From IMG/VR virus record IMGVR_UViG_3300000956_000001, positions 1 through 64,000 of that record: 64,000 nt of DNA; one strand, written 5' to 3'. This document shows positions 10,164-62,913 of the stretch, piece after piece. Position 1 is the first letter of the stretch, and each line of letters starts with the position of its first letter. The DNA is from a virus. The notes under the pieces are model-generated. The model had not been told where the DNA came from and made no database searches. It was given only the letters and a program-made list of their open reading frames with translations. The position numbers and the translations under genes are program-made.

Positions 10164-10207
10164 CAAGAAAACGCCGACCCTCATGGCGAGGAGTCGGCGT
10201 TTTCTTG
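10164..10207. terminator. Bidirectional intrinsic terminator between the convergent arms
   Basis: Perfect 15-bp stem CAAGAAAACGCCGAC / GTCGGCGTTTTCTTG at the point where + and - genes converge. Confidence 0.8.
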
Positions 10208-27003: not shown

Positions 27004-27172
27004 GTGTTGCCCACTCGCGAATGTTCTCGTAGTTCAGAGCATCCATTACAATGCTGTGATGAGCGCCCGCTCGGTCCGTGCACGTAGGCGAGAAGGCGCA
27101 CGCACCAGCCTTTTTATCGTCAGGGCTGTGCATGACTGGCGGTAGCAGCTTGAATGTCACGATGAAATGCAT
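26720..27172 (-). CDS. Hypothetical protein
   Basis: TAATG overlap with the recombinase stop. Confidence 0.5.
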   Translation of the reverse strand: MHFIVTFKLLPPVMHSPDDKKAGACAFSPTCTDRAGAHHSIVMDALNYENIREWATHEGMHVTRIEEIFFIKSIPGEYDVPVSGGQLGVDGREADGGSTRLSSAHADTTFDLSPATGPLVEYPITGICSGFNAAREVEEDRARRRVSSGD

Positions 27173-35010: not shown

Positions 35011-35103
35011 GCGATCACCTCCCTTTTCACTGACACTCGGTACTGACACTCTAGGGGGTGCCACGGAGCCTGCCGATCCGTGGCACCTGACTAGTGGGTC
35101 AGG

Positions 35104-40768: not shown

Positions 40769-40932
40769 TTCCTCCTCGTTGGGTATGGGGAACGCGATAG
40801 CCGAGACACCTCCTGAAACAGGCGGCCTCTTCCAGTCTCGACTACCGCCGCACTGGGCCTAATCCCTCCCAGTACAGACTCTAGTCACTGCTGCGTCAGC
40901 TTGACGGCCCAGGTTTCTCACGCCTGGTGTGA

Positions 40933-45464: not shown

Positions 45465-46700
45465 CAAGCCCTGGCACTCGCTTGGGAGACGTTGTGCCAG
45501 GGCTTACCCTCGTGCCGCTACATGTGCCTGACGGACTGTTACGCTTCACAGGCTTCCACTCAGGCTAGCCATAGAGGCCGTGCCGACTCGTACGGCGACC
45601 GGTTCCCCTTGCTGCTTGTGGTGCTCCCTTGGTTGTAACCCGACTTGGATGCGTACCTCGGGATTGCGCCTCCACCAGTCCGTCAGGACTTGTCTTGCCA
45701 CATAGCCAATACCCCGCAGTGGGCATTGATGGGCTGACCAATCAGAGTCAGAGGTTTGATCAACACACTGACTAAACGTGACTGGTCCGCAGGTGTGTCT
45801 ACTTGCTAGCTCGCCAGGGTGACGCCAGTCAAGGCGCCGCTTTGCGCAGGTAGCCGCCAACTGGTCAGCCCGAGGGTTGCATCACGCTGGTGTAATGCGC
45901 TGACACTTCAACCTAAACAGGCCCTACCCGTCTGCAATAGTCGGTGCACGCCTGCCGTTTGTCGCTGGCCCGTTCGGGGTCCAGCCCAGGTGGTCTGCCC
46001 ATTTCCCAGTTTTTTCGTTGGCCCTGACTAAGGCCGGTTCATCCTTCCTGTTCTCGGACGTTTCCGTCTCCGAATACAGGGGTCCAACCAGACGCCTTGA
46101 TCAGGGCCGTACGCGTGATGCAACCTTCGCGCTAACCAGGTGCTCGTCTACCGGCTAACCGTTCCGTTGTGCGATGCGTGATGGTGCCTGTAGCCCGCTA
46201 GGATCGACGCTGACGACCGTTTGTGGCGGTTGCTAGGGTGGGTAACCCCCGTGCGGTGTAACGCGCTACGGGCGATCCTAGCGGGCTTTGTGCAGTGTTA
46301 CTGTGCGGACTCGACCAGTCACGTTTGGTAACCTCACGTGACAGAGGTAAGCGCGGCAGGATTCCGGCCTGTCGTTCTCAGGACTGCTGGACTCCGGGGG
46401 TCGCAATGACCCATACTCCGGTTTTCCCAGGCGGAACCCTGCCGCTGGTTGGACCCATCGTGAGTCAGTCACGTAGCGTTGCGTCGAGTGCGTGCGGGAC
46501 CTAACCGATGATAGCGCGGGAGCTATGTCGATCAGTACGGACGCACTGGGAGGCGCGGCTTGATGGCTGGCGTTGATGTGTCCGCTGACGGGACATCGGC
46601 TGGGAAAGGTGGGTAACCCTGACCGATGTACCGCCAGCGCACACATCACACTGTGTTGTTAGGCAGCGTGATGGTGCCCCTGGACGCCTGATCCTGCATG
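45465..46700. ncRNA. Candidate large structured non-coding RNA region
   Basis: No convincing ORF. Nested long-range stems 45527-38/45676-87, 45872-87/46113-28, 46020-27/46101-08 and a 15-bp stem around 46192-46287. Confidence 0.5.
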
Positions 46701-46734
46701 GGCCAGGCGTCCAGGTTTGTTGCCGTGGTGCGGA

Positions 46735-47850
46735 CTAGGCGACCTTGCGAGCGCCGCCCACGCCGCCATCCTGGGCGGGCACGATGCCTTCCAGGTTGAA
46801 CTTGGGGCTGGACAGGGCGGCCGTGATGGCACCCGAGCTGGCGTTGCCGTCCGGGTACTCTTCCGTGCGAGTCTTCGCAATCTGGCCCGTCTTCAAGAAG
46901 GTGCCGACCGGCACGCTCGCGAAGACCTCCTGGATGTGCGACTTCACGCTGCGCTTCGGACCCGTGTAGGCGTCACGCGTACCCGTGCTGGTGGCGGTAC
47001 CGGCTGCCTTCGGCGCACGAACCTTCGCGACGTTGCCGCCACGACCGTGCGCGATCTTGGCCGCGTTCTTCACGACGACGTGGACCTCGGGCGCCTTCGG
47101 CTCGCGGGCCGCGTACGCCTCGTCCGTCTCGTCGGTCTTCTTGCCCTCGGTCGCCCAGGAGTTGTGGTCGACCTCGTACGCCTGCCACGCCTTGACCTCG
47201 GGGGCCAGCGACTTCGACAGCTCCTGGACCTTCGCGGTCCAGTCGGGGCTCACGCCCTCGCCCGGGGTCAGCATGGAAACCGCCAGGTAGAACGCGGAGA
47301 CCTTCTCGACGTGCGCCTGCGTCGGATCGACCGGAGGCTTGACGACCTGCTCGCGCTGGGCGGTTGTGGTCTTGACCTCGGCACCGAGATCCATGTAGAC
47401 CTTCGCCTTGGAGGCGTTCAGCTCCTTGGTGAGCGAGGTCTTCATCCCGGTTTCGAGGAAGTCGCGGGCCTTCTTCTTCAAGCCCGGGGTCGGCAGGGCC
47501 GCGTAGGCCAGCTTGACCGGTGCGACGTTCACCGTGGGGACGTCGCCGGTCGTCTGGTCGCGCGCCTCGACGGCCTCGTTGACCTTCGCCTCGAACTCGG
47601 CGAACAGCTTCGCGTGCTCCGCCTCGGTGGCAGCCTGCTCGGCGGCCAGCTCCTCGGGGGTCTTCGTCGGGCCGGTCGCGGTGTTGGCGTCCGGCGTCTC
47701 GGGGGCCTGCGGGGTTTCCAGGTTTTCGACCGGAGTCGCAACCTGCTCGGGCTGCGACTCGGTGGCCATGCCCGGAAGGCTGGACATCTGCTCGGTGGGC
47801 TGCGTGACCTCTTCGGCCGAAGCCGTGGTCACGTCATCCTGGTCACGCAT
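46735..47850 (-). CDS. Probably abundant early protein with a C-terminal putative DNA-binding domain
   Basis: 371 aa, extreme GC3, GAGGAG RBS, own promoter; C-terminal domain resembles ORF 51335-51595. Confidence 0.7.
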   Translation of the reverse strand: MRDQDDVTTASAEEVTQPTEQMSSLPGMATESQPEQVATPVENLETPQAPETPDANTATGPTKTPEELAAEQAATEAEHAKLFAEFEAKVNEAVEARDQTTGDVPTVNVAPVKLAYAALPTPGLKKKARDFLETGMKTSLTKELNASKAKVYMDLGAEVKTTTAQREQVVKPPVDPTQAHVEKVSAFYLAVSMLTPGEGVSPDWTAKVQELSKSLAPEVKAWQAYEVDHNSWATEGKKTDETDEAYAAREPKAPEVHVVVKNAAKIAHGRGGNVAKVRAPKAAGTATSTGTRDAYTGPKRSVKSHIQEVFASVPVGTFLKTGQIAKTRTEEYPDGNASSGAITAALSSPKFNLEGIVPAQDGGVGGARKVA

Positions 47851-47891
47851 GATGACTCCTCGTCGATGTGATGTGGTGTGCGTCGTTTGAA

Positions 47892-47920
47892 ACTGTAGTG
47901 CATCGGGTCTGTTCCGTCAA
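47892..47920 (-). promoter_or_regulatory. SigA-type promoter
   Basis: TTGACG-N17-TACAGT. Confidence 0.65.
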
Positions 47921-48194
47921 CCCCCGTGGCAGGGATTGTGGATCCGATCTAGCAGGCCGACGGTATGGCTCCCCGTTATCGGCTCGCTGTTCCCGTCCCG
48001 ATGCATTCAGTCTAGCACATCGTTTCGGGTAGTGCAACTGGCGTGTTGTGCAATTTCAGGGTTTTTCATGGCTCCCCTACTAGGCCGAAGTCTAGCACAC
48101 CATGCGATGCTAGTCAACTGGGCCGTTGTGCTGTGTTGCTGTGTGCATGCGCCAGGTAACGCTGCCCGTAGGCGAGCGTGCTGGGTCATGCTGC

Positions 48195-48696: not shown

Positions 48697-48822
48697 ACAC
48701 TAGCAGGTGTTTCCCGTTTTGGCAACTCCCCGGATATTGCGTACCCGGCTCCTCGTTACCTGCGTAACGCACCCGCCTGTGTGGCGTGCGTCTAGTATGG
48801 CATCAGGTGGACGCGTTGTCAA
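48697..48822 (-). promoter_or_regulatory. Two tandem SigA-type promoters
   Basis: TTGCCA-N17-TAGTGT (48725-48697) and TTGACA-N17-CATACT (48822-48794). Confidence 0.6.
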
Positions 48823-49045
48823 CGTGTCCTAGTGGATAGATTGCCCGTTGGCACATATGGCATCTGACCTGCTGTTATGCTAGACCAGGCGCCGGTAATG
48901 TCCGAATTGCCAGATTTTACCGTCTTGCCCGACTAAGAGGGCTTTGCGTAGTGAACGCCACCTTTGAGTGAGAGTGCCTCACTTGTGACGACATGCACGT
49001 AGATGCCCTGTGCAGGTGCAATTGCCTCTTTGCAGTGTATACAAG

Positions 49046-49447
49046 TCATTTGTCCGTTTTGTCCTTCTTGCGGGTCTTTCTGGGCTTAGTTGACTTTGCG
49101 TGCTGTAGCCGCTGCAATGTGTTCTTTTCGATCTCAATCATCATCAAAGCGGCATTTCGGACTTCCGGGGTAAAGGGTCCAGTGTACCCCATAGTGAACA
49201 GAACGGCTTTTGCAGCCATATCGTTCTGTTCGCGGCGAGAGAGAGACTTCTGCACCGGAGCCGAACTTTTGCGCTCAGACTTCCCATCCTTGGATGCCTC
49301 ACCACGGATGATGACAACTCGGCTACAGGGGAGCGAATCGTCACCATCCGTGGTAAGGCGGACAACGATACCAATTGGGGCAGAGCTAGACTCGCGCACC
49401 AATTCGTAGTATCTCGCCTTATCAGGATCAAAGAGCATATCGCGCAC
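49046..49447 (-). CDS. Hypothetical protein
   Basis: 133 aa, basic C-terminus; first gene downstream of the stem array. Confidence 0.55.
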   Translation of the reverse strand: MRDMLFDPDKARYYELVRESSSAPIGIVVRLTTDGDDSLPCSRVVIIRGEASKDGKSERKSSAPVQKSLSRREQNDMAAKAVLFTMGYTGPFTPEVRNAALMMIEIEKNTLQRLQHAKSTKPRKTRKKDKTDK

Positions 49448-49534
49448 CTTTCAGGTTTTACCAGTCATGTGGCACTAACAGGGTAAAACATTACAGTTGC
49501 ACCATATCAGGGCATATGACTCAAAAAGGACATA

Positions 49535-49804
49535 CTACCTGGTAACTACTTCCATGACCTCAGTCTGGCGAGCGATCTCAAATTCGGCAATGTTGCGCTT
49601 TCCAGGCGTACCGGGCGAAGCGGACATACACTGCGTAACGGCTTCAAGTGCATCCTCGTACGTATCCCAGGAACACTTCCGATTCCAGTACAATTCCCAC
49701 CAGATGCCACTTCCGTCCCCATCCAGGTAATTCACCCGGAAGCAGACATCAGGTTGATACTTGCGCAAAACGCGCAACTCGGGCTGTTCAGACATCTCGG
49801 ACAT
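49535..49804 (-). CDS. Hypothetical protein (cassette A)
   Basis: 89 aa, AAGGTGGG RBS. Confidence 0.6.
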   Translation of the reverse strand: MSEMSEQPELRVLRKYQPDVCFRVNYLDGDGSGIWWELYWNRKCSWDTYEDALEAVTQCMSASPGTPGKRNIAEFEIARQTEVMEVVTR

Positions 49805-50099
49805 AACCCACCTTCCCAGACTTTCGGGGTAGACGAGACATATGCCCCCATAAGGTACAACTGTGATGTTAATCTGGAATCGTCATAGATGCACCTGATG
49901 CGCGCATTCCGGAGGTTACAGACTAAACGGACATACTACTTAGATGCGTAGTAACCAGTCACGATGACTGCAAATACGACCCAAGCGACGATGAAGCCAA
50001 ACCAGAACTTCTGGCCATTTGTCATCTTGTCACCACAAACAACACGAAGGCCGCCCATAGTACCATCAGTACAAAGGCGGCAAAAAGAAGCTTAATCAC

Positions 50100-50642
50100 T
50101 CATTCCTCCTCAAAACGGACAACCTTCGCGCCGCCGTCATCTGTCTCCATTACCGTAGGAAGCAACAGATGGCCACGAACCGTAATGCTCTGGTCATCCT
50201 TGCCCTTGTTGCGCAACTGCCACTTTTTGTTAGCAACGCGACAAGAAGGGCACCTGCACCCATACATGGAGTAAGACAGGTAATTGCCGTGACTCGTCCA
50301 ACTCGGTTCGAAACGGATAAACCAGTCCCAGCACCAGGTTTCGATGCATTTCGGGCAGATACTCTGGTAATCCGCATCGGCGTCATGAGCACACGTAGTG
50401 CACACATCTGTCGAGACGATGACATTACGCCCGTAAGGCGCGATAATGCGCCTTCTGGGCGCATTCACCGAAGGGGGACGAACGTCCTCATTCAGTGCAA
50501 TGTGCACGATCTGCCCAACTTGGACATTACGCCAGTCAATCTGGCGATTCACTCCGCCGATGACAAACTGGTCGTACTCGCCCTTCACGTCAGATTTCGG
50601 GGCAATCGTCTGGTATTGAACAGATGACGATCCTTTTCCCAT
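50100..50642 (-). CDS. Zn-binding hypothetical protein (cassette B)
   Basis: CTTC, CPKC and HG..SY..YGCRCPSC motif; AAAGGTG RBS. Confidence 0.6.
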   Translation of the reverse strand: MGKGSSSVQYQTIAPKSDVKGEYDQFVIGGVNRQIDWRNVQVGQIVHIALNEDVRPPSVNAPRRRIIAPYGRNVIVSTDVCTTCAHDADADYQSICPKCIETWCWDWFIRFEPSWTSHGNYLSYSMYGCRCPSCRVANKKWQLRNKGKDDQSITVRGHLLLPTVMETDDGGAKVVRFEEE

Positions 50643-50753
50643 TTTACACCTTTACCCTTTATCAGGCATCAGGTGCATTTATGACGATTCCAGATTATTA
50701 GTGCCAACTACACTGAACCCACTATTAGGGGCAGAACGGACATCGCAGACATG

Positions 50754-51299
50754 TCAGTCTTTCGTGTCGTACCAGACATGACCGTGCTCATCTACGTGAG
50801 CTGGCTCATCCAGGACATGCTGTGCATCAGCGTTGCATTGCGTCTCATATGGTGACATTGCACCACACAGTGACGTTTGGGGCGCTTCGACACATTTGGA
50901 CACGGGAGTCATGCGGTAGCTTACGTGCATCAATACGAGGATTTCGCACGCATTGCGCAACTGCCGCAGAAGGGGCAACTGTTCCGAAACGTAAAACCGT
51001 CGCAGAGTGTCATCATCGTCCTCATTCATGCGATACGACACATAGTCGACACCGCTCTCATTTGTGACGATTCGGACATACCCGACGATGTGCTCCATCT
51101 GGTTTTGGTCCGACTCGTGCCAGATGCACGTATCAGACCAAACGCCCGCCCATGGGCCCTCTTGTACGGTTACGATCGGCTTTGCCCAGATTGCACCGTA
51201 ACGCGTCATTTGACGGACTGCGGTATCTTTGTCGTCAATGACCCTGTTGTGCGAGTTGTGCGAGTTGTCCATCTCTCCACCTTTTTCAGGTTTTAGCAC
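50754..51299 (-). CDS. Hypothetical protein (cassette C; start probably 51272)
   Basis: AAAGGTGGAG precedes MDNSH. Confidence 0.55.
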   Translation of the reverse strand: MLKPEKGGEMDNSHNSHNRVIDDKDTAVRQMTRYGAIWAKPIVTVQEGPWAGVWSDTCIWHESDQNQMEHIVGYVRIVTNESGVDYVSYRMNEDDDDTLRRFYVSEQLPLLRQLRNACEILVLMHVSYRMTPVSKCVEAPQTSLCGAMSPYETQCNADAQHVLDEPAHVDEHGHVWYDTKD

Positions 51300-51334
51300 T
51301 GGATGCCCTACTAAGGGACGAGACGCGCGGTTGC

Positions 51335-51595
51335 CTACGGTTGTACCTTTCGTCCGCCCTGTGGCGATTTGTCGTCGTCTGCTACCTTGTGTCCGTATTG
51401 GATCACAAAGTCGTAGATGTCCGATTTAATCAGCGTGCGGCTAAGCAGTAGGTGCGCCAGAATTGCACCTCTTCCGGGCCTTTTGTCCTGATCAGGGTAT
51501 TCTGGGGTGATTGCGTTACAAATCTGCGCAACCGTCATGAAGTGCCCGTATTCGTGACCTTTGAACGCATTGAGAATGTGGTCCCGGATTGTCAT
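51335..51595 (-). CDS. Small putative DNA-binding protein (cassette C)
   Basis: Similar to the C-terminus of ORF 46735-47850. Confidence 0.6.
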   Translation of the reverse strand: MTIRDHILNAFKGHEYGHFMTVAQICNAITPEYPDQDKRPGRGAILAHLLLSRTLIKSDIYDFVIQYGHKVADDDKSPQGGRKVQP

Positions 51596-52029
51596 CAGAT
51601 GTGCGGTCCGTCCAGATGGTCGAAGATGTCCGATTTGAGGTAAACCGCCATCATCAGGACCGATTGGAGTAGTCCACCCACGTTCTGGCCGTGATCGTCC
51701 ATTGATCCCTGTTCGGCACCACTGTCCACGATGAGGCTAATTGCCTGCTCTGCGGCCTTTTCGTAGTTAAGGTGCATGTCTCCGGTTTGGACCAATTCGC
51801 CCAGTTCGTTCGGATCAAGAAGATTGTCCGGAAGAGGCTGATTGTCCAGATCGCGCCGAAGGACCAACAACGCACCATATGCGGTGAAAATGGCCTTTTC
51901 GATGTCATCGCGGAGAAGCTCACGTTCTGATGCGGTAAGACGCGAGTTGCGTGTGTTTCCCATTTTGCCCACCTTGGCGACTAAGTGTGAAATGCGCACC
52001 TCGTCCCATAGTAGGGCATCCAGTACCAT
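51595..52029 (-). CDS. Hypothetical protein (cassette C; start probably 51963)
   Basis: AAGGTGGGCAAAATG start motif. Confidence 0.55.
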   Translation of the reverse strand: MVLDALLWDEVRISHLVAKVGKMGNTRNSRLTASERELLRDDIEKAIFTAYGALLVLRRDLDNQPLPDNLLDPNELGELVQTGDMHLNYEKAAEQAISLIVDSGAEQGSMDDHGQNVGGLLQSVLMMAVYLKSDIFDHLDGPHI

Positions 52030-52173
52030 TCTTGACAGAATATGACGTTACCTTACATATTTTGACATATGCCAGTTATGTCCGATTCTGCCCCTAATGG
52101 TGGGTTCAGTGTGATTCATACGGCTTGTTAGTAACATCCCAAATCGTCTGCTATGCACCTGATGTCTGATTTG

Positions 52174-52371
52174 CTAAACAGTGACCGGTTTGCCCGTTTT
52201 CAGGTCAATCATCTCGGTTTGTCGTGTTAGAGGTGCAACTGTCCGCTTCGGGGGATTCTTCCCATTTACCCGCTGCGTGAATGTCTGACCGCATGTGTCA
52301 CACATTCTGCGGATATGGGTACCTGTGCCCGGTAGGTGAGTCACCTCCCTATTGCAGTGCATGCGTACCAT
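52174..52371 (-). CDS. Small Zn-ribbon protein (cassette D)
   Basis: HC...CDTC. Confidence 0.5.
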   Translation of the reverse strand: MVRMHCNREVTHLPGTGTHIRRMCDTCGQTFTQRVNGKNPPKRTVAPLTRQTEMIDLKTGKPVTV

Positions 52372-52417
52372 TCTCGCCTACCCGTGCTAGTTGGTGCCGT
52401 TTGTCCAGTTTGTGACG

Positions 52418-52612
52418 TTACTTGGTGATACCTTTCGGTATCCACCGAGGTGTGGTGCAAACGTAGCATTCGCCACACTTGTACCACGTGTCCGAGTATC
52501 CGCAATCCTGGTCGAAATCCCACCATCCAGGCACTTCGCCCAGTTTGATGGACTTGTCCGTTTTGCGGTTCCTGACAACGTTTCTGATAGCATTGCGCAG
52601 ATTGATACCCAT
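52418..52612 (-). CDS. Hypothetical protein (cassette D)
   Basis: AAAGGTGG RBS before MGINL; Cys cluster. Confidence 0.5.
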   Translation of the reverse strand: MGINLRNAIRNVVRNRKTDKSIKLGEVPGWWDFDQDCGYSDTWYKCGECYVCTTPRWIPKGITK

Positions 52613-52750
52613 TGTACTGATTCCACCTTTTGTCCGTGTTGCCCGTTTTAAGGGGTTTGTGAACACCAGGTGCATAGCAGACGATTTGGGATGTTGCAGA
52701 CTGAATCACCATTTACGTGCCAGTTGTCGCACATTATGCTGGTTTGTCCG

Positions 52751-52963
52751 TTAGTTCACAATCTGGATAACTAAGGACGTTATCCAGAGAATGACTAGAA
52801 CTACCCAGATTGCTAGGGCTATCCCGGTGTGTGGCTTCATGTCCGTTTTGGTCCTTATGTTACCGAGTGTACAGTTTGCGACCCTTGCGCACCAGGTACA
52901 CATACATACCGTTAGCCCGCTGAAAACGCAAATGCGTGACTTTGGGTCCGATGAGGTATCCAC
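52751..52963 (-). CDS. Small membrane protein (cassette E; start uncertain)
   Basis: C-terminal TM helix. Confidence 0.4.
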   Translation of the reverse strand: MDTSSDPKSRICVFSGLTVCMCTWCARVANCTLGNIRTKTDMKPHTGIALAIWVVLVILWITSLVIQIVN

Positions 52964-53030
52964 CCCAGTTGGTCCATTGGCACGTCATGCACTCATTGTC
53001 TGCGATGTCCGAAATGCTAGACATGTGCGA

Positions 53031-53480
53031 TCAGAGCGCCTTGCACACGTTCTGGGCGAACCATTCCCATGCGTCCCGTTGCCAGGCGACAGGTCCGAAG
53101 TGGTACGTCCAGTGCGGAAGGTACGGTTCGGCCATCTCTGCCACGATTCCGGTAAAGCTGTGCGCGTATGCACCGATACCGATCAGATCGCCCGGCATGT
53201 CGATAATGCCCTTGGATGCCCGATATGAGGGGTTGTATTCCGAGACGACCCAAAAGACCAGTGCGGTATTGATTGCCCGCATTGCACCTCTTGGGTCGGT
53301 TGCGTGGAAGAGCTGGAATGCCCGTCCCATGCGACCTTCGCACAGTGCGTGATACATTGCGGCATTTTCCCGCATTGTCGCACCTGAGTGCATTTCCAGG
53401 ATTACGCCTTTTGGCTGGTTCGTCCCGTTGGCACCGTTCGCGAAGGTTTCCTTGATTGTCACAGTTGCCATGATTCCCAC
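53031..53480 (-). CDS. Hypothetical protein (cassette E)
   Basis: ~146 aa, AAAGGTGGG RBS. Confidence 0.6.
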   Translation of the reverse strand: MGIMATVTIKETFANGANGTNQPKGVILEMHSGATMRENAAMYHALCEGRMGRAFQLFHATDPRGAMRAINTALVFWVVSEYNPSYRASKGIIDMPGDLIGIGAYAHSFTGIVAEMAEPYLPHWTYHFGPVAWQRDAWEWFAQNVCKAL

Positions 53481-53600
53481 CTTTTGTGTGTCTTGCCCGT
53501 TTTAAGGACAACTGGCACATAAAAGGTGATTCAGTCTGCTATGGTTCAAACGCCCTACTAGGTGCCTGATGAGCTGAATGTGCTGGATGTCTGGGTTGTG

Positions 53601-53987
53601 CTAGTCCATCCAGAGTGCGAAGTTTCCGTCGATAACGCCATAAACAGCCTGGTGTGTACGGTTCTGTCCGTATTTTTCCAGTTTGTCGTATTCGAGCGTT
53701 ACGACCCAGTCTGAGTCGTCACAGTGCCTTAGGCACCCATAACCGCACTTATCATCGTGAATGTGCCGTCCGTTACCATCTGTGACGTTTAGCACCCTTA
53801 CGGACGTGATGTCGTAAAGGGGCCAGTTGTCACGAAAGTACTGAACGGGCCACATGTCCGAATACTCCGGATCGCACCGAAGTTCCAGACTGTACACATT
53901 GCGCTGAATGAGGTCTTTGCGGTAATGTTCCAGAATGTCCCCGAAAGGTGCATCTGGCCGCTCCGCCACCGTCCGCGTAGCCTGCAT
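53601..53987 (-). CDS. Hypothetical protein (cassette F)
   Basis: 128 aa. Confidence 0.55.
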   Translation of the reverse strand: MQATRTVAERPDAPFGDILEHYRKDLIQRNVYSLELRCDPEYSDMWPVQYFRDNWPLYDITSVRVLNVTDGNGRHIHDDKCGYGCLRHCDDSDWVVTLEYDKLEKYGQNRTHQAVYGVIDGNFALWMD

Positions 53988-54000
53988 CGGTTTGTCCGTT

Positions 54001-54426
54001 TCAGCCCGTGATGGTGTTGATGTCTTTGTTGCCCATCACGCGCACACTGCGTGCAAGGTCCGAAAGGAGCTGCTTGACCGTTGCGACCGGAAAGCCCTCA
54101 TTGAACGGACTGTCCATCAATTTCCGATTGTCCGAGATGAACCATTCGTCCAACATGACCCCGTAATCCCAGAATGTCCGGTTATACACCGGGCCGCTCG
54201 AAGTGTGACCGTATGTCCGGCCGTAAGGGAACATGTAGAGAGTGTCCCTTTCGTCCGTAATGTACGTGAAGTCGCCGATCGTCACAAAAGCCCGATCGAT
54301 GACAGTTTGCGAGTCACATCCCATTCCAGCCAGATTGGCCGCAATGTAGACTTCGTCCGCATAGTCACGCTTCATGGTGCTAAGTGCGCTATGCGTCGGG
54401 ATGGTCGACTTGTCCATTTTGCCCAC
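54001..54426 (-). CDS. Hypothetical protein (cassette F)
   Basis: AAAGGTGGGCAAAATG start motif. Confidence 0.6.
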   Translation of the reverse strand: MGKMDKSTIPTHSALSTMKRDYADEVYIAANLAGMGCDSQTVIDRAFVTIGDFTYITDERDTLYMFPYGRTYGHTSSGPVYNRTFWDYGVMLDEWFISDNRKLMDSPFNEGFPVATVKQLLSDLARSVRVMGNKDINTITG

Positions 54427-54593
54427 CTTTGATGATGTCTGATCTAGTTTGCCCGATCAGGCACCTAGTAGGGCGTTTGAACCATATAAGCCGTATGGGT
54501 AGTTTCGCGCTGAATGACCTATTAGTGGTCGAATGTCTGTATTACCTGTATTGCGTGTAATGCCAGTTTTTACCGTGATGTCCGACTAAGATG

Positions 54594-54953
54594 CTAGTCG
54601 ACCCCGTTTTCCGATCCGTCGTAAACGCGCGAGATGTCCTGCATGTCCTCAATGGACTCGATGACCTGCATGCGTGCCATGTCGCGCTTGTTGGTTTTGA
54701 TCCATTCCACGCAGTACTTCACGGTTTCGCCGTTGTCGACCCAGATTTCGTAAATGTCCGTTGCGAGTTGGTCTGGGTAGGCGATGGCGATTGCAGCCAA
54801 GAACGCCGCATGTGTCACCTTGTAGGCGTTTCCACCCGCAATGTCACCATCCGGGCTGAATGCCACAGATGAGTGGACCTGTCGCATAAGTTCCGCGAAG
54901 TCGGTCTTGCGCGTTTCGCCACCAATGACCGGAATGTCCAGTTCTCGCATGAT
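54594..54953 (-). CDS. Hypothetical protein (cassette G; start near 54950)
   Basis: AAGGTGGG precedes MRELD. Confidence 0.55.
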   Translation of the reverse strand: MMRELDIPVIGGETRKTDFAELMRQVHSSVAFSPDGDIAGGNAYKVTHAAFLAAIAIAYPDQLATDIYEIWVDNGETVKYCVEWIKTNKRDMARMQVIESIEDMQDISRVYDGSENGVD

Positions 54954-55199
54954 GCCCACCTTGTGTGTGATGTCCGAATTGCCAGTTTTAAGGCATTCGA
55001 CCACTAATGGGCCATTCAGAGCGAAATGCCCCCTAACATTCCAGAATCACCCGCTTCGGCCCGTGTAGAGCCGTAATGTCTGTCCGGTCCCGAAATGAGG
55101 GGACCTAAGCACATTTGGGTGATTCTGGATGCCTTGGGGGTAGTATGCGCTGAATGCCCTATTAGATGACGGTTGGGGTGGGTGAGTCCGTTTTGCCTG

Positions 55200-55754
55200 T
55201 TAGATGCCGTATCCGTTGTCTGTCGCGATTGTGTCGATCAGTTCGACAAAGGTACAAAGCCCTTTTTGGTAGTTCTGGTACATCTTGCGGATTGCGTCAC
55301 CGTTCGGACCGTCTTCGCCCGTTTTGCGCAACCAGAACCCAATTGCCATACGAACAGACCATTCGTACCAATAGTGCGAACTGTGCACATGGTCCGTGAT
55401 GTCCGTCTGTTCCCACAATTCGTACATCTGGTCCCACTCGTTACCTTCGTCCCAGATTTCCTCGGATGAGACGTAAAGGGCCAATGCGCCCGTTTCGCAC
55501 CAGATGTTGTACTGCTCCCGATCCATGACGTTCTGGATGATTTTGCCCTCATCGCCCATATGCCAGACGGTTCGGGTGCCTTTGTCCAGAACGTAACGGA
55601 ATGTCCCCAAGGGACCGTCTTGTCCGATTTGGCCCAGAATGACCAATTCCTTGACGAATGAGACGGGAGGAGTCATAAGACCCGTGTTGCCCATTTTGCC
55701 CACCTTTTCCCTACTAAGTGCGGTTTTGTCTAGATAAGTCCGTTTTGTACTCAT
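55200..55754 (-). CDS. Hypothetical protein (cassette I; internal start MGNTG likely)
   Basis: AAAAGGTGGGCAAAATG motif near 55694-55710. Confidence 0.6.
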   Translation of the reverse strand: MSTKRTYLDKTALSREKVGKMGNTGLMTPPVSFVKELVILGQIGQDGPLGTFRYVLDKGTRTVWHMGDEGKIIQNVMDREQYNIWCETGALALYVSSEEIWDEGNEWDQMYELWEQTDITDHVHSSHYWYEWSVRMAIGFWLRKTGEDGPNGDAIRKMYQNYQKGLCTFVELIDTIATDNGYGI

Positions 55755-55845
55755 CTACCCTAACCGTCACCTAATGAGGCATTCAGTGCATACCTACCGG
55801 TTCGTCATGATGTGCCCTATTAGGGCCTGGATGTCTGTTTTCGTG

Positions 55846-56268
55846 TCAGTTGTACTTTTCGTCCGTGACGTCGCAAATCAGCGGGTTCTCACCGTTCGTC
55901 CCGATTGCCCATACCTGAGCACGATACGGGTCAGTATTGGTGATTACGCGCCCGAATGTCGCATCTGACTTGTATTCGCCATACACGTGGATTTCGGTGA
56001 CTTCGACCGTTTCGCACGTCTTGACCAGTTCTTCCAGTTTGTCCAAATTGACCGCTACGTACCCACATGCCCAGCATGACTGACACACCCGGATAAGTCC
56101 CATTGTGCCGGAAATGACTGGAATGCCCGCGAAGTCCGTTTTGAACTCTTCGAGGCAAAGGCCGCATTCGTCGTGGTAAGTCCGAATTCCGTCTTCCGCG
56201 TTGAAATCGACGGAAGTGACCGTAATGACTGTCATGATAGCTGTGCCCACCTTTAGGTTGTTTTGCAC
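55846..56268 (-). CDS. Hypothetical protein (cassette J)
   Basis: CGLC...CQSC; AAAGGTGGG precedes MTVIT. Confidence 0.55.
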   Translation of the reverse strand: MQNNLKVGTAIMTVITVTSVDFNAEDGIRTYHDECGLCLEEFKTDFAGIPVISGTMGLIRVCQSCWACGYVAVNLDKLEELVKTCETVEVTEIHVYGEYKSDATFGRVITNTDPYRAQVWAIGTNGENPLICDVTDEKYN

Positions 56269-57342
56269 TGGAATGTCGCTGATGTCCGTTTCGGTCTTTC
56301 ACAAGATGGACATTCCAGGCCCTAATGGGGCACACCATGCCGAACCATCGGCAATCTATCCACTATGGACAAGTCAAACAACAATGTGACACAAGCCCCT
56401 AAAGGCGCCTAAACCGCATAATTGCAACTGATACACCCTTATATGGGGCAATTTCAGTCTAAAACGGACATTTCCCAGTTTTACCGTCTTTGCCCACTTT
56501 AGTACCGTCTACCCACCTTTGTCGCGTTTGCCCGTCTTTGGTGCCGTCTTGTCGTACTTGTCGGCTACGCGGCATCTGGGGGCCTTTGCCCGGGATGTCC
56601 GTTTCAGTGCGGTTTAGTTGTCAATCAACCCGTGTCGCCAAGCGTGGCGCCTAGCGGCCGTGCTGTCGTGCGGGTGGTGCCCCACTAGCCTAGCACCCCC
56701 CTAGGCGCAGAGCTCGGACAAATCGGACTTATCACGATAAGAACGCCCGCCTGAAATGTCCGTTCTGGCCCACCTTGCCCCGGTATGACATCGGCCGAAA
56801 GTACGATATAGGTCTGACCGTTCGGGGGATGGACGAACTAATGCGGCATCTCGGCTACGCCCGCCCATATCGGCCCAGAATCGGACATAAAGACGGCCGG
56901 ATAAGTCACGATAAATCGTCTTAAAACGGACAGGGACATATCACCTCAAACCGTCTCAAAACGGGCACGGACATACCGCCTGATAGCACCTCAAAACGGA
57001 CGTGATGGCCCTAACCCCGGTTGACCTGCGAAAACGCCGTAGGATCGCCGTAGGGGCGCTAGAATTGGCCGATGCATACCCGTGCCCCCAACGGGCGTGT
57101 AGGCGCGTCAGCGGCGGCGCTAGGGGCCTTAAATGGCCGATTCCGCTAGCCCCCACGGGTGGGCGGGTAGGTGGGCAAACGGGGGTGTAGTAGGCCAGAT
57201 GGGGCAGTGTCGTGATATATCATCTTAAATCGGACATCTGACGATATAGCGCTGAATGGTACGAGATTGGGGGAAAGAGGGGAATGTCCGATTTATCATC
57301 TTATGTTGTAAGGGGGCGTAAGATAGGGGGCTATGCGCGCAA

Positions 57343-57546
57343 GTCCACTGTGGACAGATGGGATTCATGATCTTCTATATTCAAGATCATGAGAGCGTGA
57401 CGATCTTGAATATAGAAGATCGTAAGAGTGTGACGATCTTCTATATTCAAGATCGTCTATCATCACTGATCTTAGATATTCAAGATCATGAGAGTGTGAC
57501 GATCTTGAATATAGAAGATCATGAATGAGATCTGTCCACTGTGGAC
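57343..57546. repeat. Five GATCTT-N8-AAGATC pseudo-palindromes at an exact 33-bp period, bracketed by GTCCACTGTGGAC
   Basis: Units start at 57369, 57402, 57435, 57468 and 57501; bracketing palindromes at 57343-55 and 57534-46. Confidence 0.92.
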
Positions 57547-58141
57547 TCACGCATAGACGATCATGGATGGCTCAGCTACGGGCAAGTCGGACATTGGGGA
57601 CTTAGGTGGAGATTGTGGGGGATAGGGTGATATTGAGGTGAAAAGTCCTAGGTTTCGGGAATCTGGGGCTATTTGTGTATAAGGGGTATCTGGGGGACAA
57701 GTCGGAAATTACATATCATATGGCATATATCGCTCTTTGTCGTTGATCTGGTAAATGTCCTGGTTTGGGTGAAAATGGCGTTTTCGGTAGACTTGTCGCT
57801 TGTGTGCAGAATGCCCGCATAAAGGCGACATATACGGTATATACGTCATGGGCCTTATATCGGACTTGTGCCCTATGACTGATAATGACCTTTTATTACA
57901 CTTTGTCCGTTTAGGGCCCGGCTAGACTCGGACAAGTCGGACATGTCGCATATAGGCGCTCATCTGGGGCAAATGCGACAGGGGCGGGCAAAGGGTGCCG
58001 ATAACTTATATTATCGGCAGACGGATATATCGTGACAAAGTAGGACAAATCGGACTTGTCCACCATGCCCGAGTTGGGGGGTATGAGAAAATTGTCGGGG
58101 GGGTGCGCGCGAGCGCCCTCTGTGCCCTGTCGCTACTTATG

Positions 58142-58232
58142 AAATTTTTACGAGGGCATGATCAACATAAATCTGGCTATACCATCTGTCACCTCCCGAT
58201 ACACACAAAATTTTTACGAGGGCATGATCAAC
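58142..58232. repeat. 25-bp direct repeat
   Basis: AAATTTTTACGAGGGCATGATCAAC at 58142 and 58208. Confidence 0.85.
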
Positions 58233-58374
58233 TATACCTGTCAAATCTTTGTCCACCTGCCCAGAAGGCGAAACCAGCTCAGCCACCTAGGATTCGCACT
58301 GAAGTACGTAACGCCACGTAATGAGTAACGGAGACGATAGGGGGTATCGGTGACGGTCCCATGATCGTTTGCCA

Positions 58375-58915
58375 CGAAACCTAAATGGCCTGTGACCTGC
58401 ATATATATAGGGTTTAGGGGTTTAGGGGGTTTTAATTTTAAAAATCTAATATACCTAGCTCTGACTTGGTTTTCGTCACTGTCCGTAGACGCTGGGTGGT
58501 GGGGGAGCATCTTGGGGTATAGACCCGTATAAGATGGTTTGCCAATCTGGTTGGGTGTGGGGGCTTATAGGCGAAAAAAACCCCGGAACCCCTAAACCCC
58601 TATTTGATCTATGTTTTCGCAGGTCAAAACCCCTCCCGAAACCTCCGCCGAAACCCCCCCCGAAACCCCCCTATGATCATCTAGACAGCGTCCCCGAAAC
58701 CGATAACGTCCCCGAAACCCCTCGGCAAACGGAAAAAACGGACAGAGCGATGGCCCGGTCCGTGAGATCTGCAGTGTCTCGCGCGGCCGGGCCATCGTCT
58801 GAAATATGTAGTTATCAGGGGTTGTGGGGACGATCCCCGAAACCTACGAAACCTATCCTAGCACTACGGTTTCGGGGATTCGGGGGTTTTGGATTGCGTC
58901 CCCGAAACCCCCGTG
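58375..58915. repeat. Cluster of CCCCGAAACC-like repeats in both orientations (candidate origin iterons)
   Basis: About ten or more CGAAACC/CTAAACC copies around an AT-rich patch (58400-58455), next to the primase/helicase genes. Confidence 0.6.
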
Positions 58916-59640
58916 ATCGTTGCGTTGACGTACTCGGGTACGTCGGGTCGGTAGGTGAGGTGCAGGAACCTGTAGAGTTTCAGGGGGGTATCCAGCTGAA
59001 TATAGGGGGTTGACTCTTGGGTTGGAAGTACTGGACGGTTCGTCTGATGGGTATAGACCGTCCAGGCAAACAAGAGTGGTTCGATCGCTGCGTACTGAGG
59101 AACCGACAGCTTCAGCTGGCTGTAGCGTGCAGTACGGGAGCTAACTGTCGGCTTCAGGCCCATTCTGACCAGGCGAAGCTGGGATGTTTCGTTCTGTGCA
59201 TCACGTCTCGCACGCCTGCAAAGAGGTCCCTTGCAGCCCTGCCTGTAGGTGAGTGACGTGCCATGCGTGCTGCTGTAGTCGGGATCTGCCAGCTCTGAGG
59301 CAATCAGATCCAGAACGATGACGTGTCGTTCTGGAATATAGAACCCCAGTTTCGGTACCCTGACACAGCGTTCGTGTTCTGTGAAACGGATGCTGAGTTC
59401 GTTCGGTGCGAGCTTAAGCGTCCTAGGAAGCCGCTCTGCTTTTCCAAGAGGTGGTTGGATCACGAGCATCTCTCTCAGTGGAATTGATGAAAGACTGACT
59501 TGAGTAGTGACTGGCTTGTGGTTGTGACGCGCGCCAACTGAGTTAAGGTCGAAGTGCGGATTCGCGAGACTCGTGAAGTCAGTCATCTCGTCCATCGTGC
59601 CATACTCGGCCCGGTAGCCCTGCATGCCCTTACTCATCAC
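58864..59640 (-). CDS. Hypothetical protein with HG..Y..GC...C Zn motif
   Basis: THGTSLTYRQGCKGPLCR; GTGA overlap with the helicase gene. Confidence 0.55.
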   Translation of the reverse strand: MMSKGMQGYRAEYGTMDEMTDFTSLANPHFDLNSVGARHNHKPVTTQVSLSSIPLREMLVIQPPLGKAERLPRTLKLAPNELSIRFTEHERCVRVPKLGFYIPERHVIVLDLIASELADPDYSSTHGTSLTYRQGCKGPLCRRARRDAQNETSQLRLVRMGLKPTVSSRTARYSQLKLSVPQYAAIEPLLFAWTVYTHQTNRPVLPTQESTPYIQLDTPLKLYRFLHLTYRPDVPEYVNATITGVSGTQSKTPESPKP

Positions 59641-61613
59641 GCACTCACCGCCACTCCCGGAGCAAGTGTATAGGCAGACGTCGGGCGGCCTCCGTTGGGT
59701 CCGGGCGGCACCTTCATCTCGATCAACATCCCCAAAACTACAAGATTCTCGAGATTTTTGCGGAACTTCCCAATAGAACTGTTTTTGCGCTTCATTACCT
59801 TGTAAAGCTCGTTTGCGGTTGGTCCTCGGCCAGGTCCTGTCATTCTCATCACATGACGCAGAATCAGATCATTCTCGTCCGACTCCTGAGACGCTGCGAT
59901 CTCGGTCTCGACGATTCCGTAGGTCTCAATCACGTGCGGGAACAGGCTGAGAACGCGAATCACGATGTCAGCAGTGATGACGTCGCTGCCTTCGTTAATT
60001 GCGAAGAGCAAGAACAGCTTCTTCATCATCAGATCGAGACGCTGTGTGATCGCTACGTCATTACGCTCACGCTGAGGTACGTACACTTTGTGAAAGAAGG
60101 TGTCCCATGCGTTCTCCCCGAGGCGCTCCCAGGTGACAACTTCGTGTGCGCGCGTCTTCATGTTGATCCCGGTCAGGATACTAGCCGCCCTGTCGAGATC
60201 AATTCGAGTGCGGTTAATGCTGAACGGCTTCTTTGGAGTGCCTGAAACGAATGCCCAGCGGTTGGCAAAGCCGCTATTGTCGTCCCCCTGGGTAATGAGC
60301 GTCCGAATCGACTTGAACTGCGTCGTAGTGATTGCGCTACCGAAGGGGCGCTCCGCACCGATGTTGCCGTGCGTCATCGACGTACTGGACAGCCAGCGCG
60401 GCGAATCGTACAGATCCATCAGTGTGGTCTTGAGTGTTGACCCTTGACGGTTGTTCTTGCCGATCAGGGTCGCAAGTTCCTCAAAGTCGACCAGTGCACG
60501 AATGAATGGCCAGCTACCGATAACCTTACCGGTGCCAGGGTCCACCATATCGTGCTGGAACTGCTTGATGAGTACCTCGCCCGACTGGATGCCGTTAAGA
60601 TACTGAGCACCGAACGGCGGCTGGTCGTCCCGCCTGTAGGGGAGCGCCTCGTGAATCAGGTTCGTCAGGTGTCGCTTCGACTTGGACTTGCCGGTACCGG
60701 TGCCGCCGACGAGGCAGACAAAGAGGTTACCGGCAACCTGAGGACTATCTTCGAGGGTTCGCATCCCCCCAACGGCCAGTCCGAGACCGAGAAGGCCGTT
60801 CCAGAAGTGAAATTCTTCCGGACTGTCATCCACACTTGTGGCGTCGAGATAAGTTCGGAGGAACGTATCCTCTGGAACAATATCCCGCCAGGCGATTCCT
60901 GGGTGCTGTCGGTTGGCGTTGAGGTCATTTGTGAGCTTCAGCTCCTCCGCTTCAGACCCTTCGGCCGTGTAGATGACGTTCTCGTTGTTGCTCTGGTCAG
61001 ATCCGGGCTCCGTGACGGTTGTTACTGCAATTGGCAGCTGTGGCGTCTGAACTACGAACGGATCGCCAGCAATGCCCTTTTCGATCCTAAGACCGAAGAA
61101 GTCGCCAATCGCCTCACGAAGAGCCCTGAAGCTGGCAGGATCGGCCTTATAGCCAGGCACCGGGTAGCCGAACCGCCACGCAGCGATATCCCAGATGTCT
61201 CCACCGCCACACTTGGCACAGTTGAAGACGTTCTTCTCGGTGTTGAGCCAGCAGCTTGGGTCGTGGTCGGGGTGTGCAGGGTTCGGACACCGAACCTTGA
61301 TGCTGTCTTTGCGGCCGCCGGGATTACAGTGGCCCTTGTCGGCCCACTGGTTGTAAGCGTCCACGATGCTGATCATCGCGATAAAGTCGTCCAGAACGCG
61401 CTGCTCTGGACTGATCTGCGAAACCTTGTCTTCTTCTTCGCTCATATCGGGAATGAACTCCCGATACTGAGCCATGAACATGTCGCCCTGCTGAGCTTCA
61501 TATTCTTCATAGCCACGCTTCAAGCGCAGCTTGTACGCAAACGTCGTCTCGCCATCGAGCTGCTGCTGCTCAGCTTCCCATTCGGCGCGGGACTTGTGGT
61601 CCAACCATCCCAC
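59637..61613 (-). CDS. Primase-associated Zn finger plus P-loop helicase-like (DUF3987-type) replication protein
   Basis: CPNPAH...FNCAKCGGGD (CHC2-like), Walker A GGTGTGKS, GFANRW, C-terminal wHTH ending GGRPT..Y. Confidence 0.75.
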   Translation of the reverse strand: MGWLDHKSRAEWEAEQQQLDGETTFAYKLRLKRGYEEYEAQQGDMFMAQYREFIPDMSEEEDKVSQISPEQRVLDDFIAMISIVDAYNQWADKGHCNPGGRKDSIKVRCPNPAHPDHDPSCWLNTEKNVFNCAKCGGGDIWDIAAWRFGYPVPGYKADPASFRALREAIGDFFGLRIEKGIAGDPFVVQTPQLPIAVTTVTEPGSDQSNNENVIYTAEGSEAEELKLTNDLNANRQHPGIAWRDIVPEDTFLRTYLDATSVDDSPEEFHFWNGLLGLGLAVGGMRTLEDSPQVAGNLFVCLVGGTGTGKSKSKRHLTNLIHEALPYRRDDQPPFGAQYLNGIQSGEVLIKQFQHDMVDPGTGKVIGSWPFIRALVDFEELATLIGKNNRQGSTLKTTLMDLYDSPRWLSSTSMTHGNIGAERPFGSAITTTQFKSIRTLITQGDDNSGFANRWAFVSGTPKKPFSINRTRIDLDRAASILTGINMKTRAHEVVTWERLGENAWDTFFHKVYVPQRERNDVAITQRLDLMMKKLFLLFAINEGSDVITADIVIRVLSLFPHVIETYGIVETEIAASQESDENDLILRHVMRMTGPGRGPTANELYKVMKRKNSSIGKFRKNLENLVVLGMLIEMKVPPGPNGGRPTSAYTLAPGVAVSA

Positions 61614-62028: not shown

Positions 62029-62913
62029 TCACTTCCAGTAATTCGTAGTAGTAAGCGCGTCGAGAGCGTCGCGCGGCGTCAGAGCCTGTGAACCATAGTT
62101 GGTACGAAAGTCGAGGAAGAACGTCGGATCCAGGGGATTCTTGAGGTTCCGACCCAGAGGGAGCCGACAAAGGTTCCCGAAGCCCTTCTTCTCCAAGGCA
62201 ACCTGCTTGGGGAAGACTTCGACCGTCATGCACTGGTAGCTGAGTTCCTCGTCGATGGTTCCGTTGTGAGCGTTGACGATCTTGTGCTTAAAGAAGTTAT
62301 TGCCCCTACTCGGGGCAAAACAGCCGAGATTGTCCAGAATCATCTGTGCGCCATCGCGAACATCTTTGGCTGGCATGAGGCCAGTGAAGCCGTACACATG
62401 CACACCCTTGTTGCCGGTGTACGTGGCAGCAACTGGGATCTCAAGCTCGCGAGATACTGCGCTGGCGAGCTTCTCGGCAAGCATGCGCATCTGCGTCTTG
62501 AGGTACTGCCGCTGAAGTCCCAGACTCCGATTGAGCCAGTCTTCGCGCGGGTTGGTCGGGAAGAAGTTCTTGTACACGCCGTCCGAGTCACAGTCGACCG
62601 GCAGTACCAGCTGTTCGTACGTCTCTGGATGCTGAGGGTCCGGCTTGTCCAGATCGATATCAAAGACGAACAGCTTGCACTGGTCATCCTTGTTGAGCAG
62701 ATAGTGACCGTAAGTTGCATCACTGTTGATATGCGCCAACAGATGCTTCATACCGAAACCACTGTCCGGAGTGATGACTGCCGTTCCGTCCGCAGTCCGA
62801 TCCACGGCTGGCTGGTATGCGCCATCAGCTCGCTGCGTTGCGCGCACATCAGGTCGTGCGATGAAATTCTTAGCGAACAGCTTTGCGATTTCTTTCTGCT
62901 GATCGATGTCCAT
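62029..62913 (-). CDS. Archaeo-eukaryotic primase (AEP / prim-pol) catalytic protein
   Basis: FVFDIDLD, TGNKGVHVY, VEVFPKQ, GNLCRLPLG. Confidence 0.85.
   Translation of the reverse strand: MDIDQQKEIAKLFAKNFIARPDVRATQRADGAYQPAVDRTADGTAVITPDSGFGMKHLLAHINSDATYGHYLLNKDDQCKLFVFDIDLDKPDPQHPETYEQLVLPVDCDSDGVYKNFFPTNPREDWLNRSLGLQRQYLKTQMRMLAEKLASAVSRELEIPVAATYTGNKGVHVYGFTGLMPAKDVRDGAQMILDNLGCFAPSRGNNFFKHKIVNAHNGTIDEELSYQCMTVEVFPKQVALEKKGFGNLCRLPLGRNLKNPLDPTFFLDFRTNYGSQALTPRDALDALTTTNYWK

Follow-up and report, generated by a model that had tools for sequence, protein, structure and literature searches.

The stretch of DNA considered here (the window) comprises positions 1 to 64,000 of the 82,629-bp IMG/VR record IMGVR_UViG_3300000956_000001, which derives from a soil metagenome. 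The record represents the genome, with direct terminal repeats, of an uncultured soil phage of the actinobacterial type, which as judged by protein similarity is a distant relative of the phages of Corynebacteriales. At 49487–56346, ten inverted-repeat pairs, 31–50 nt in length and 83–100% complementary, enclose 15 small minus-strand genes of the ORFan type (orphan open reading frames, ORFs). The pairs are referred to as stems S1 to S10, and a further pair that surrounds the block as S0. In the following list coordinates are given for the plus strand, and the designations 5´ arm and 3´ arm follow the sense of the mRNA, which is the minus strand.

S1, minus strand, 3´ arm 49487–49522, 5´ arm 49835–49870: 30 of 36 positions Watson-Crick; the 5´ arm abuts S2 and shares base 49870 with it.
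S2, minus strand, 3´ arm 49870–49901, 5´ arm 50666–50697: 31 of 32 positions complementary.
S3, minus strand, 3´ arm 50710–50743, 5´ arm 52078–52112: 33 of 35 positions, one gap; encloses the gene 50754–51272 and all of S4.
S4, minus strand, 3´ arm 51298–51328, 5´ arm 51994–52024: nested; 28 of 31 positions Watson-Crick and two G-U.
S5, minus strand, 3´ arm 52133–52165, 5´ arm 52663–52695: 32 of 33 positions and one G-U; the 5´ arm abuts S6 without a spacer.
S6, minus strand, 3´ arm 52696–52728, 5´ arm 53507–53539: 31 of 33 positions; the 5´ arm abuts S7 without a spacer.
S7, minus strand, 3´ arm 53540–53570, 5´ arm 54456–54486: perfect, 31 of 31 positions; the pair called F in an earlier annotation.
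S8, minus strand, 3´ arm 54503–54538, 5´ arm 54991–55026: 32 of 36 positions.
S9, minus strand, 3´ arm 55139–55187, 5´ arm 55749–55798: 42 of 50 positions Watson-Crick, seven transitions; the 5´ arm abuts S10 without a spacer.
S10, minus strand, 3´ arm 55799–55835, 5´ arm 56309–56346: seen by inverted-repeat search and self-BLAST.
S0, minus strand, 3´ arm 48822–48845, 5´ arm 56350–56374: outer stem; 24 of 25 nt match across 7.5 kb.
Local hairpin between S8 and S9, minus strand, 55004–55165: gene-less; a perfect 17-bp inner stem (55036–55052 with 55117–55133) and a 64-nt loop.

The ten pairs were recovered by three independent methods, namely a repeat finder, self-BLAST of the whole genome, and all-against-all alignment of the intergenic regions. 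The top ten reverse-complement alignments among the 11 intergenic regions are exactly the ten neighbour pairs. Eight inverted matches with E<0.01 occur in the 82,629-bp genome, every one of them within 49870–56346. With a laxer cut-off and pairs 100–3000 nt apart, 12 of the 15 matches genome-wide fall in the block, and five shuffled genomes gave none. Summed over the ten stems, there are 324 Watson-Crick positions, 21 transitions, 7 other mismatches, and 3 gaps. A first-pass annotation of the window, made from the sequence without database searches, had described an array of inverted-repeat pairs around small minus-strand genes, and this description is borne out.

None of the arms overlaps a gene, and the arms stand on either side of whole gene units. 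The distance from the end of the 5´ arm to the first start codon is 23–73 nt, and that from the last stop codon to the start of the 3´ arm is 6–55 nt. Four junctions have no spacer (49870, where S1 and S2 share a base, 52695/52696, 53539/53540, and 55798/55799), and these are the junctions that the first-pass annotation had named A/B, D/E, E/F, and I/J. Its picture of abutting units holds for these four and does not extend to S4, which is nested inside S3, or to the local hairpin at 55004–55165, the outer part of which reflects the likeness of the S8 and S9 arms. S0 encloses the whole block together with one more gene (49046–49438), and its 5´ arm lies 3 nt upstream of the 5´ arm of S10. The S0 pair scores 37, and the best score among 200 shuffles was 30; its duplex, at -35.8 kcal/mol, is weaker than those of the other stems.

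Pairing within the array is private. Cognate arms form duplexes of -48 to -66 kcal/mol and every non-cognate combination gives -5 to -38 kcal/mol, as expected from the earlier claim that an arm matches its own partner far better than any other. Identity within a pair is ~95% inside the arms (324 of 355 aligned positions; 86% over alignment columns 16–50, which include some flank), and between arms of different pairs it is 41–44%. The proposal that each pair has a different sequence is thus correct as far as the privacy of the pairs is concerned, but the arms are not unrelated. All 20 can be aligned into a single family, and the core that they have in common (roughly CTGAAT-GCCC-TAnTAG-G) is found mid-arm at a variable distance; there is no conserved sequence at stem bases or junctions. 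When the paralogous stems of this one genome are compared, 40 of the 44 tallied aligned columns show two to four Watson-Crick pair types among the ten stems. The stems thus vary in sequence and keep their pairing, so that complementarity and not sequence is conserved. On these grounds the array cannot be explained mainly by a dispersed protein-binding motif, and the earlier suggestion that the pairing is maintained is upheld.

One mismatch recurs among the stems. In S3, S8, S9, and S10, the same central column has C in the 5´ arm and T in the reverse-complemented 3´ arm. It is unlikely that four independent, fresh inverted duplications gave rise to it, and gene conversion from arm to arm would erase it. 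The pattern fits one ancestral stem followed by compensated divergence.

The genes inside the stems were called by a search for Shine-Dalgarno sequences and start codons. This gave 15 minus-strand genes of 40–180 amino acids (aa) in the ten units.

Cargo of S1: 49535–49804, minus strand, 89 aa; Shine-Dalgarno sequence AAGGTGG; no Pfam or PHROG match.
Cargo of S2: 49936–50058, minus strand, 40 aa, hydrophobic; 50100–50642, minus strand, 180 aa, Cys-rich; no Pfam family.
Cargo of S3: 50754–51272, minus strand, 172 aa.
Cargo of S4: 51335–51595, minus strand, 86 aa; 51595–51963, minus strand, 122 aa; a match to phrog_6708 (E 7e-07).
Cargo of S5: 52174–52371, minus strand, 65 aa; 52418–52612, minus strand, 64 aa, Cys-rich.
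Cargo of S6: 52751–52963, minus strand, 70 aa, with an uncertain GTG start; 53031–53471, minus strand, 146 aa.
Cargo of S7: 53601–53987, minus strand, 128 aa; 54001–54417, minus strand, 138 aa.
Cargo of S8: 54594–54950, minus strand, 118 aa.
Cargo of S9: 55200–55694, minus strand, 164 aa.
Cargo of S10: 55846–56235, minus strand, 129 aa.

A strong AAGGTGG-type Shine-Dalgarno sequence precedes the first gene in nine units, and S2 has AGGTG. S3 opens with the nested S4 and not with a gene, and no Shine-Dalgarno sequence is present at its 5´ end. Scans of the cargo proteins against Pfam and PHROG returned no family apart from the weak match to phrog_6708, to which no function is assigned, and no transposase domain was found among them. 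An Atlas look-up of the 180-aa S2 protein returned only scores of 0.80 or below. The S9 protein has only two homologues (72–73% identity, on 1.5-kb contigs) among 5.8 billion protein clusters. The cargo proteins are mutually unrelated and not paralogues. With ten stems of one family around unrelated cargo, the frame has been kept while its sequence and contents changed.

The same is seen on a shorter time scale when the array is compared with a relative from a sequencing run on a different soil sample (X12). This relative is 90–95% identical, mostly below 95%, and is represented by short contigs of low depth, i.e. by thin data. An X12 contig joins 51344 to 51597 (skipping 51345–51596), by which the gene 51335–51595 inside S4 is deleted exactly. 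Likewise, 53978 is joined to 54419 (skipping 53979–54418), and the gene 54001–54417 inside S7 is missing or replaced, with the 5´ untranslated region and the arm kept. The contig that covers 55553–55875 has 18 differences in all. Among the 17 listed, 14 fall within the 133 nt of 55587–55719 (the S9 gene accounts for 11), and the 87 nt that make up the right arm of S9 and the left arm of S10 have none (hypergeometric p ~0.005). This contig stops aligning 40 nt into unit S10, beyond the unchanged left arm, and the contig covering 49200–49491 ends its alignment 4 nt into the left arm of S1, at the outer base. The arms thus persist through changes of content, and no fewer than two turnover events took place without regard to the arm boundaries. 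In the S9 gene (55200–55694), 8 of the 11 listed differences are on third codon positions, and judging by this bias the cargo ORFs look like real genes.

When the cassette RNAs of S5 (z -7.4) and S8 (z -7.0) are folded, the closing helix is present in the minimum-energy structure as well as in the centroid structure. Scans for sigma-70-type promoters and intrinsic terminators returned 9 promoter-like sites in the block, where 10.9 are expected, and 8 terminator-like sites, where 9.7 are expected. The missing excess of both signals and the location of all 15 genes on one strand are compatible with a single leftward transcript. Two sites within or at the edge of the block deserve separate mention. 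A minus-strand promoter-like site at 48822–48794 (TTGACA, 17 nt, TG-CATACT; 10/12) begins exactly at the 3´ arm of S0, and the end of the stem-enclosed block may coincide with the start of a new transcription unit. Only at 52025–52077 are two 5´ arms (those of S3 and S4) set apart by a long spacer. This segment has two plus-strand TTGACA boxes, antisense to the genes, one of which is followed by an 18-nt spacer and CATATT (10/12 promoter matches), and it may be an antisense or regulatory promoter within the S3 loop.

The reading that we favour, with a probability of roughly 55%, is that the pairs are private closing helices in a polycistronic early mRNA, that this mRNA is probably cut by host RNase III into end-clamped messages, and that the helices insulate accessory genes. 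The first-pass annotation had put forward three mechanisms (an integron-like capture array, RNase III-style stems in an early polycistron, and folding of single-stranded DNA), and in our analysis the second of these appears to fit the anatomy best. Loops of 0.3–1.3 kb (7.5 kb for S0) closed by helices of 24–50 bp are natural for RNA and implausible for duplex DNA. The block from ~56374 to 48822 would be read leftward as one early polycistronic transcript. As a unit is transcribed, its 5´ arm would, as folding suggests, pair with its 3´ arm into a helix of 31–50 bp with the gene or genes in the loop. The private sequences would make each 5´ arm wait for its own partner and not pair with that of a neighbour, such that the transcript could become a row of independent, abutting, stem-closed modules, possibly within one outer helix. 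Going by the biology of RNase III, the long, regular helices would be substrates for the host enzyme, and the polycistron would be cut into unit mRNAs. The ends of these mRNAs may stay clamped in residual duplex and be shielded from exonucleases, in the manner of the stalks around 16S and 23S rRNA. Finally, the stems may prevent accessory genes, which are unrelated and often exchanged, from disturbing one another through RNA folding. That the block is co-transcribed, that it folds in vivo and is cleaved, and that this has a stabilising effect are thus predictions drawn from the pairs, their specificity and family relationship, their placement relative to the genes, and their conservation in one contig of the relative.

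Pairing that encloses a unit of a transcript is well known. In bacterial rrn operons, leader-trailer helices around 16S and 23S rRNA are cut by RNase III. As in the phage array, complementary segments 0.3–3 kb apart flank a unit in one transcript and form a helix of ~25 bp or more, with a private pair for each unit; against the 20 bp or more expected of a leader-trailer helix, the ten pairs described here have 31–50 nt and duplex energies of -48 to -66 kcal/mol. Unlike in rrn operons, the units are protein-coding and belong to a phage, ten of them stand in a row, the helices abut, one is nested, an outer helix is possible, and cleavage is a prediction. The early mRNA of coliphages T7 and T3 has intercistronic RNase III sites, and processing yields stable unit mRNAs. 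As is proposed for the array, double-stranded RNA elements there lie between the small host-takeover genes of an early phage polycistron. The T7 sites are local hairpins in one gap, whereas in the array the halves found in one gap are not complementary to one another and pair with neighbouring gaps; the best partner is always in the neighbouring gap and only the hairpin at 55004–55165 is local. In hok-family mRNAs, fold-back (fbi) pairing brings together the 5´ and 3´ ends. This is also a long-range end pairing that encloses a coding region and stabilises the message, but it concerns a single gene with short pairing in an antisense-RNA circuit, and there is no array and no long perfect helix. 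Searches of the literature returned no account of gene-enclosing stems in phage mRNAs, and the apparent novelty lies in RNase III-type processing helices placed in a leader-trailer arrangement around phage genes.

Should the stems work at the level of RNA, the logic of rRNA operon processing would be applied to mRNAs; each accessory early gene would be enclosed by a private helix, and one transcript would give rise to ten insulated, end-protected messages. Synthetic biologists construct RNA insulators from RNase III or Csy4 sites, and the array would then be their equivalent in nature. The exchange of unrelated early genes by phages, with the expression of neighbouring genes left intact, would become easier to understand, and early operons and the boundaries of their units could be recognised in uncultured phages by a simple signature in the sequence.

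Several observations weigh against closing helices of an mRNA. We infer a role in RNA from geometry and from the exclusion of alternatives. The stem mismatches have no strand preference (10 are G-U in the sense strand, 11 are G-U in the antisense strand, and 7 are of other types), the duplex energies of the two strands add up to equal totals (-573 vs -580 kcal/mol), and the mismatch that recurs at the central column reads C-A in sense RNA but G-U in its antisense counterpart. With these tests being neutral, nothing marks the sense RNA as the folding strand. The covariation rests on paralogues of a single genome. No RNase III or dsRBD domain was found in the phage genome, and a host enzyme would therefore be required for cutting. 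Finally, the cultured relatives ReqiDocB7, Perlina, and GordTnk2 have only local hairpins at the syntenic place and no long-range private pairs; hence the layout is not ancestral to the group and is derived in this lineage.

ReqiDocB7 and Perlina are the nearest cultured relatives (primase ~33% identical) and share with the present phage the order of primase, a ~2.5-kb non-coding region, and a run of small same-strand genes, in their case with ~95-nt gaps that hold local hairpins. When eight of the ReqiDocB7 gaps were folded, each gave a local hairpin, followed by a conserved TTGACA-type box. At 6454–9946 of ReqiDocB7, each ~95-nt gap between small early genes has a fixed module, which consists in this order of GCGCGTTTGC, a local hairpin with a gap-specific stem sequence, a GTTGACATTCTCAGAATGTCA-like box, GGCTAGA, and a ribosome site (8700–10450 of Perlina was also examined). 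These modules look like terminator or processing hairpins combined with a reiterated promoter-operator. Protein searches found primase homologues of 57–87% identity. No close relative was found by DNA search in the phage collection, by searches of IMG/VR with three cargo proteins, the CobT-like protein, or the primase alignment, or among the GTDB genomes. The JGI metagenomes contributed only an 8-kb contig (L009) that ends in the non-coding region before any array.

Among readings at the level of DNA, one that we hold to be doubtful is that the arms are the halves of split, unit-specific palindromic sites, and the block a phage gene-capture or gene-flipping array that acts on structure, lacks a core sequence, and is unrelated to integrons. 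A specific form of this, which we consider unlikely, is a cassette system in which the units once were, or still can be, circles, and the arms join to make a palindromic recombination site. Serial integration at palindrome centres would give the order Q-P´ gene P-R´ gene R-Q´, and with it private repeats, abutting arms, and an outer pair. The predicted zero-spacer junctions and outer inverted pair are both seen, and there is a gene-less hairpin between S8 and S9. The strand-symmetric mismatches are as DNA would give, and the end of the X12 contig 49200–49491 coincides, within 4 nt, with the outer base of S1. On the other hand, the crossover sites (stem bases and junctions) are without conserved sequence, the left arm of S0 does not abut S1 but is separated from it by a gene-containing interval of ~640 nt, and the asymmetric mismatch that recurs speaks against arms newly made from one palindrome.

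Two further points bear on such a system. The first concerns the turnover of genes. According to the first-pass annotation, capture would be seen in relatives as gain or loss of units exactly at arm junctions and would be refuted in part by turnover that ignores them. In the thin X12 data, the two gene-sized indels are inside units and not at junctions, which goes some way towards refutation, and the contig that ends at the outer base of S1 points in the other direction. The second concerns the enzyme. The phage encodes a tyrosine recombinase of the Phage_integrase family (27172–28014), the only such protein among the ORFs scanned, at a distance of 21 kb from the array. It was previously described as an orphan and is 39% identical (E 5e-30) to gp059 of ReqiDocB7, which has a syntenic position. 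With an orthologue in a phage devoid of the stems, the recombinase is a gene of the lineage and not a partner of the array. Integrons resemble the block in being arrays of small, unrelated, same-strand, and promoterless-looking genes separated by dyad-symmetric sequences. They differ in that attC is a local imperfect palindrome with a conserved boundary core and in the presence of an adjacent intI-attI-Pc platform, neither of which is found here. An integron-like capture array, as first proposed, is accordingly disfavoured.

The pairs could also be a functionless by-product of history. Genes would have been inserted into the centres of pre-existing intergenic palindromes, e.g. after hairpin breakage, and the two halves would simply have persisted. 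The cultured relatives have a local hairpin in each ~95-nt syntenic gap, the hairpin between S8 and S9 is empty, and the mismatches, being mostly transitions and strand-symmetric, look neutral. Relics would be expected to decay, yet a complementarity of ~95% has been kept while paralogous stems diverged to 41–44% identity, and in the X12 relative the arms are more conserved than the adjacent coding sequence. This scenario also needs ten abutting palindromes and leaves the same asymmetric mismatch in four stems to be accounted for. We find it improbable.

Invertible cassettes are, in our judgement, distinctly improbable. Here, recombination from arm to arm would flip a unit and thereby switch its genes off relative to read-through transcription, and the private arms would confine the reaction to the unit. 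The anatomy that defines invertons, inverted repeats (here of 31–50 bp) on both sides of a gene unit, is present throughout, recombination between arms would keep them alike, and pair-private arms would prevent deletions between units. Against this stand the single direction of all 15 genes, the absence of an invertase next to the array, and the conserved central mismatch, which reduces recombination efficiency. Contigs of four runs have no strand-changing joints, although contigs drop rare variants, and an unbranched k=31 contig runs through S1–S6 at ~12x depth, a weak argument in the same direction. In k=31 assemblies of two runs from the source sample, a 945-nt contig (53541–54485) ends exactly at the perfect arms of S7. 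We considered these breaks as a sign of inversion and rejected them as an assembly effect of a perfect 31-nt inverted repeat. The orientation of the S7 unit is unresolvable by k=31 assemblies and rests on the original assembly.

Folding of single-stranded DNA during entry or replication, as a rosette beside the putative origin at 56.4–58.9 kb, would be in keeping with the adjoining 2.5-kb non-coding, iteron-rich region by the primase genes and with pairing that has no strand preference, but it is hardly credible for an 82.6-kb double-stranded DNA phage with direct terminal repeats, of which we know no stage that exposes kilobases (here 7 kb) as free single strand, and it leaves unexplained why the arms respect gene-unit boundaries and Shine-Dalgarno sites. 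Insertion sequences and elements resembling miniature inverted-repeat transposable elements were also considered and rejected; the arms differ between units and abut without direct repeats, and the cargo is without a transposase domain.

The genes upstream of the array place it in a conserved setting. In the direction of the genes, all on the minus strand, an AEP primase (62029–62913) is followed by a DUF3987/zf-CHC2 primase-helicase (59637–61613), the non-coding, repeat-rich stretch of ~2.5 kb at 56.4–58.9 kb, and the array. The primase-helicase is ~33% identical to its counterparts in the Rhodococcus phages ReqiDocB7 and Perlina and in Gordonia and Tsukamurella phages, and a CobT-like protein of 998 aa is ~32% identical to proteins of the same phages. 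The latter, a vWA protein, is encoded at 32068–35064 and is consecutive with an AAA_5 ATPase (35543–37171) and a vWA (TerF-like) protein (39970–40809), as in Gordonia and Rhodococcus phages. Going by this shared order, the trio is a conserved module of the phage group to which no role is assigned.

The region 56350–58900, which adjoins the primase genes, is ~2.5 kb without a convincing gene. Five copies of a 20-bp palindrome-like unit, GATCTTCTATATTCAAGATC, are found at 57368–57520 with an exact period of 33 nt, GGTTTCGGGG-type repeats at 58.4–58.9 kb, and repeated units of the form GTCCGTTTT...GATAT elsewhere in the region. From these repeats, it looks like a replication origin and/or an early control region. 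A search of Rfam gave only sub-threshold microRNA-like matches, on palindromic iterons, and no tRNAs were found.

To the other side of the array, the segment 46700–47900 stands out: the bin 46001–48000 has 64.6% G+C compared to ~52–59% elsewhere and contains a 371-aa ORF without a Pfam match. Many unrelated metagenome contigs touch 47.5–47.66 kb over 40–50 nt, and this looks like a short segment that is of low complexity or G+C-rich and widely shared. Apart from the array and the stretch at 56.4–58.9 kb, just one further medium-range inverted pair is clear, at 45861–45887 and 46113–46139 (27 nt, 89%, 225 nt apart). It is located in 45.5–46.7 kb, a stretch without an ORF of at least 150 aa.

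Finally, an oriented 10-mer, A-[A/T]-N-CGGAC-[A/T] (often AAAACGGACAT), has 37 copies genome-wide, 34 of which are within 48800–58900, i.e. in 12% of the genome. Within the array, the gene-sense strand has 20 copies and the opposite strand 4 (shuffle mean 0.46). Of the sense-strand copies, 13 fall in coding sequence, with the effect that unrelated proteins share K-T/S-D-I/M/F. In the non-coding region at 56.4–58.9 kb, the 10-mer is found in either orientation (7 and 3 copies). A conserved phage protein may bind to it or use it as a signal. Its CGGACAT core is also found downstream of the primase gene in the 57%-identical relative represented by L009.

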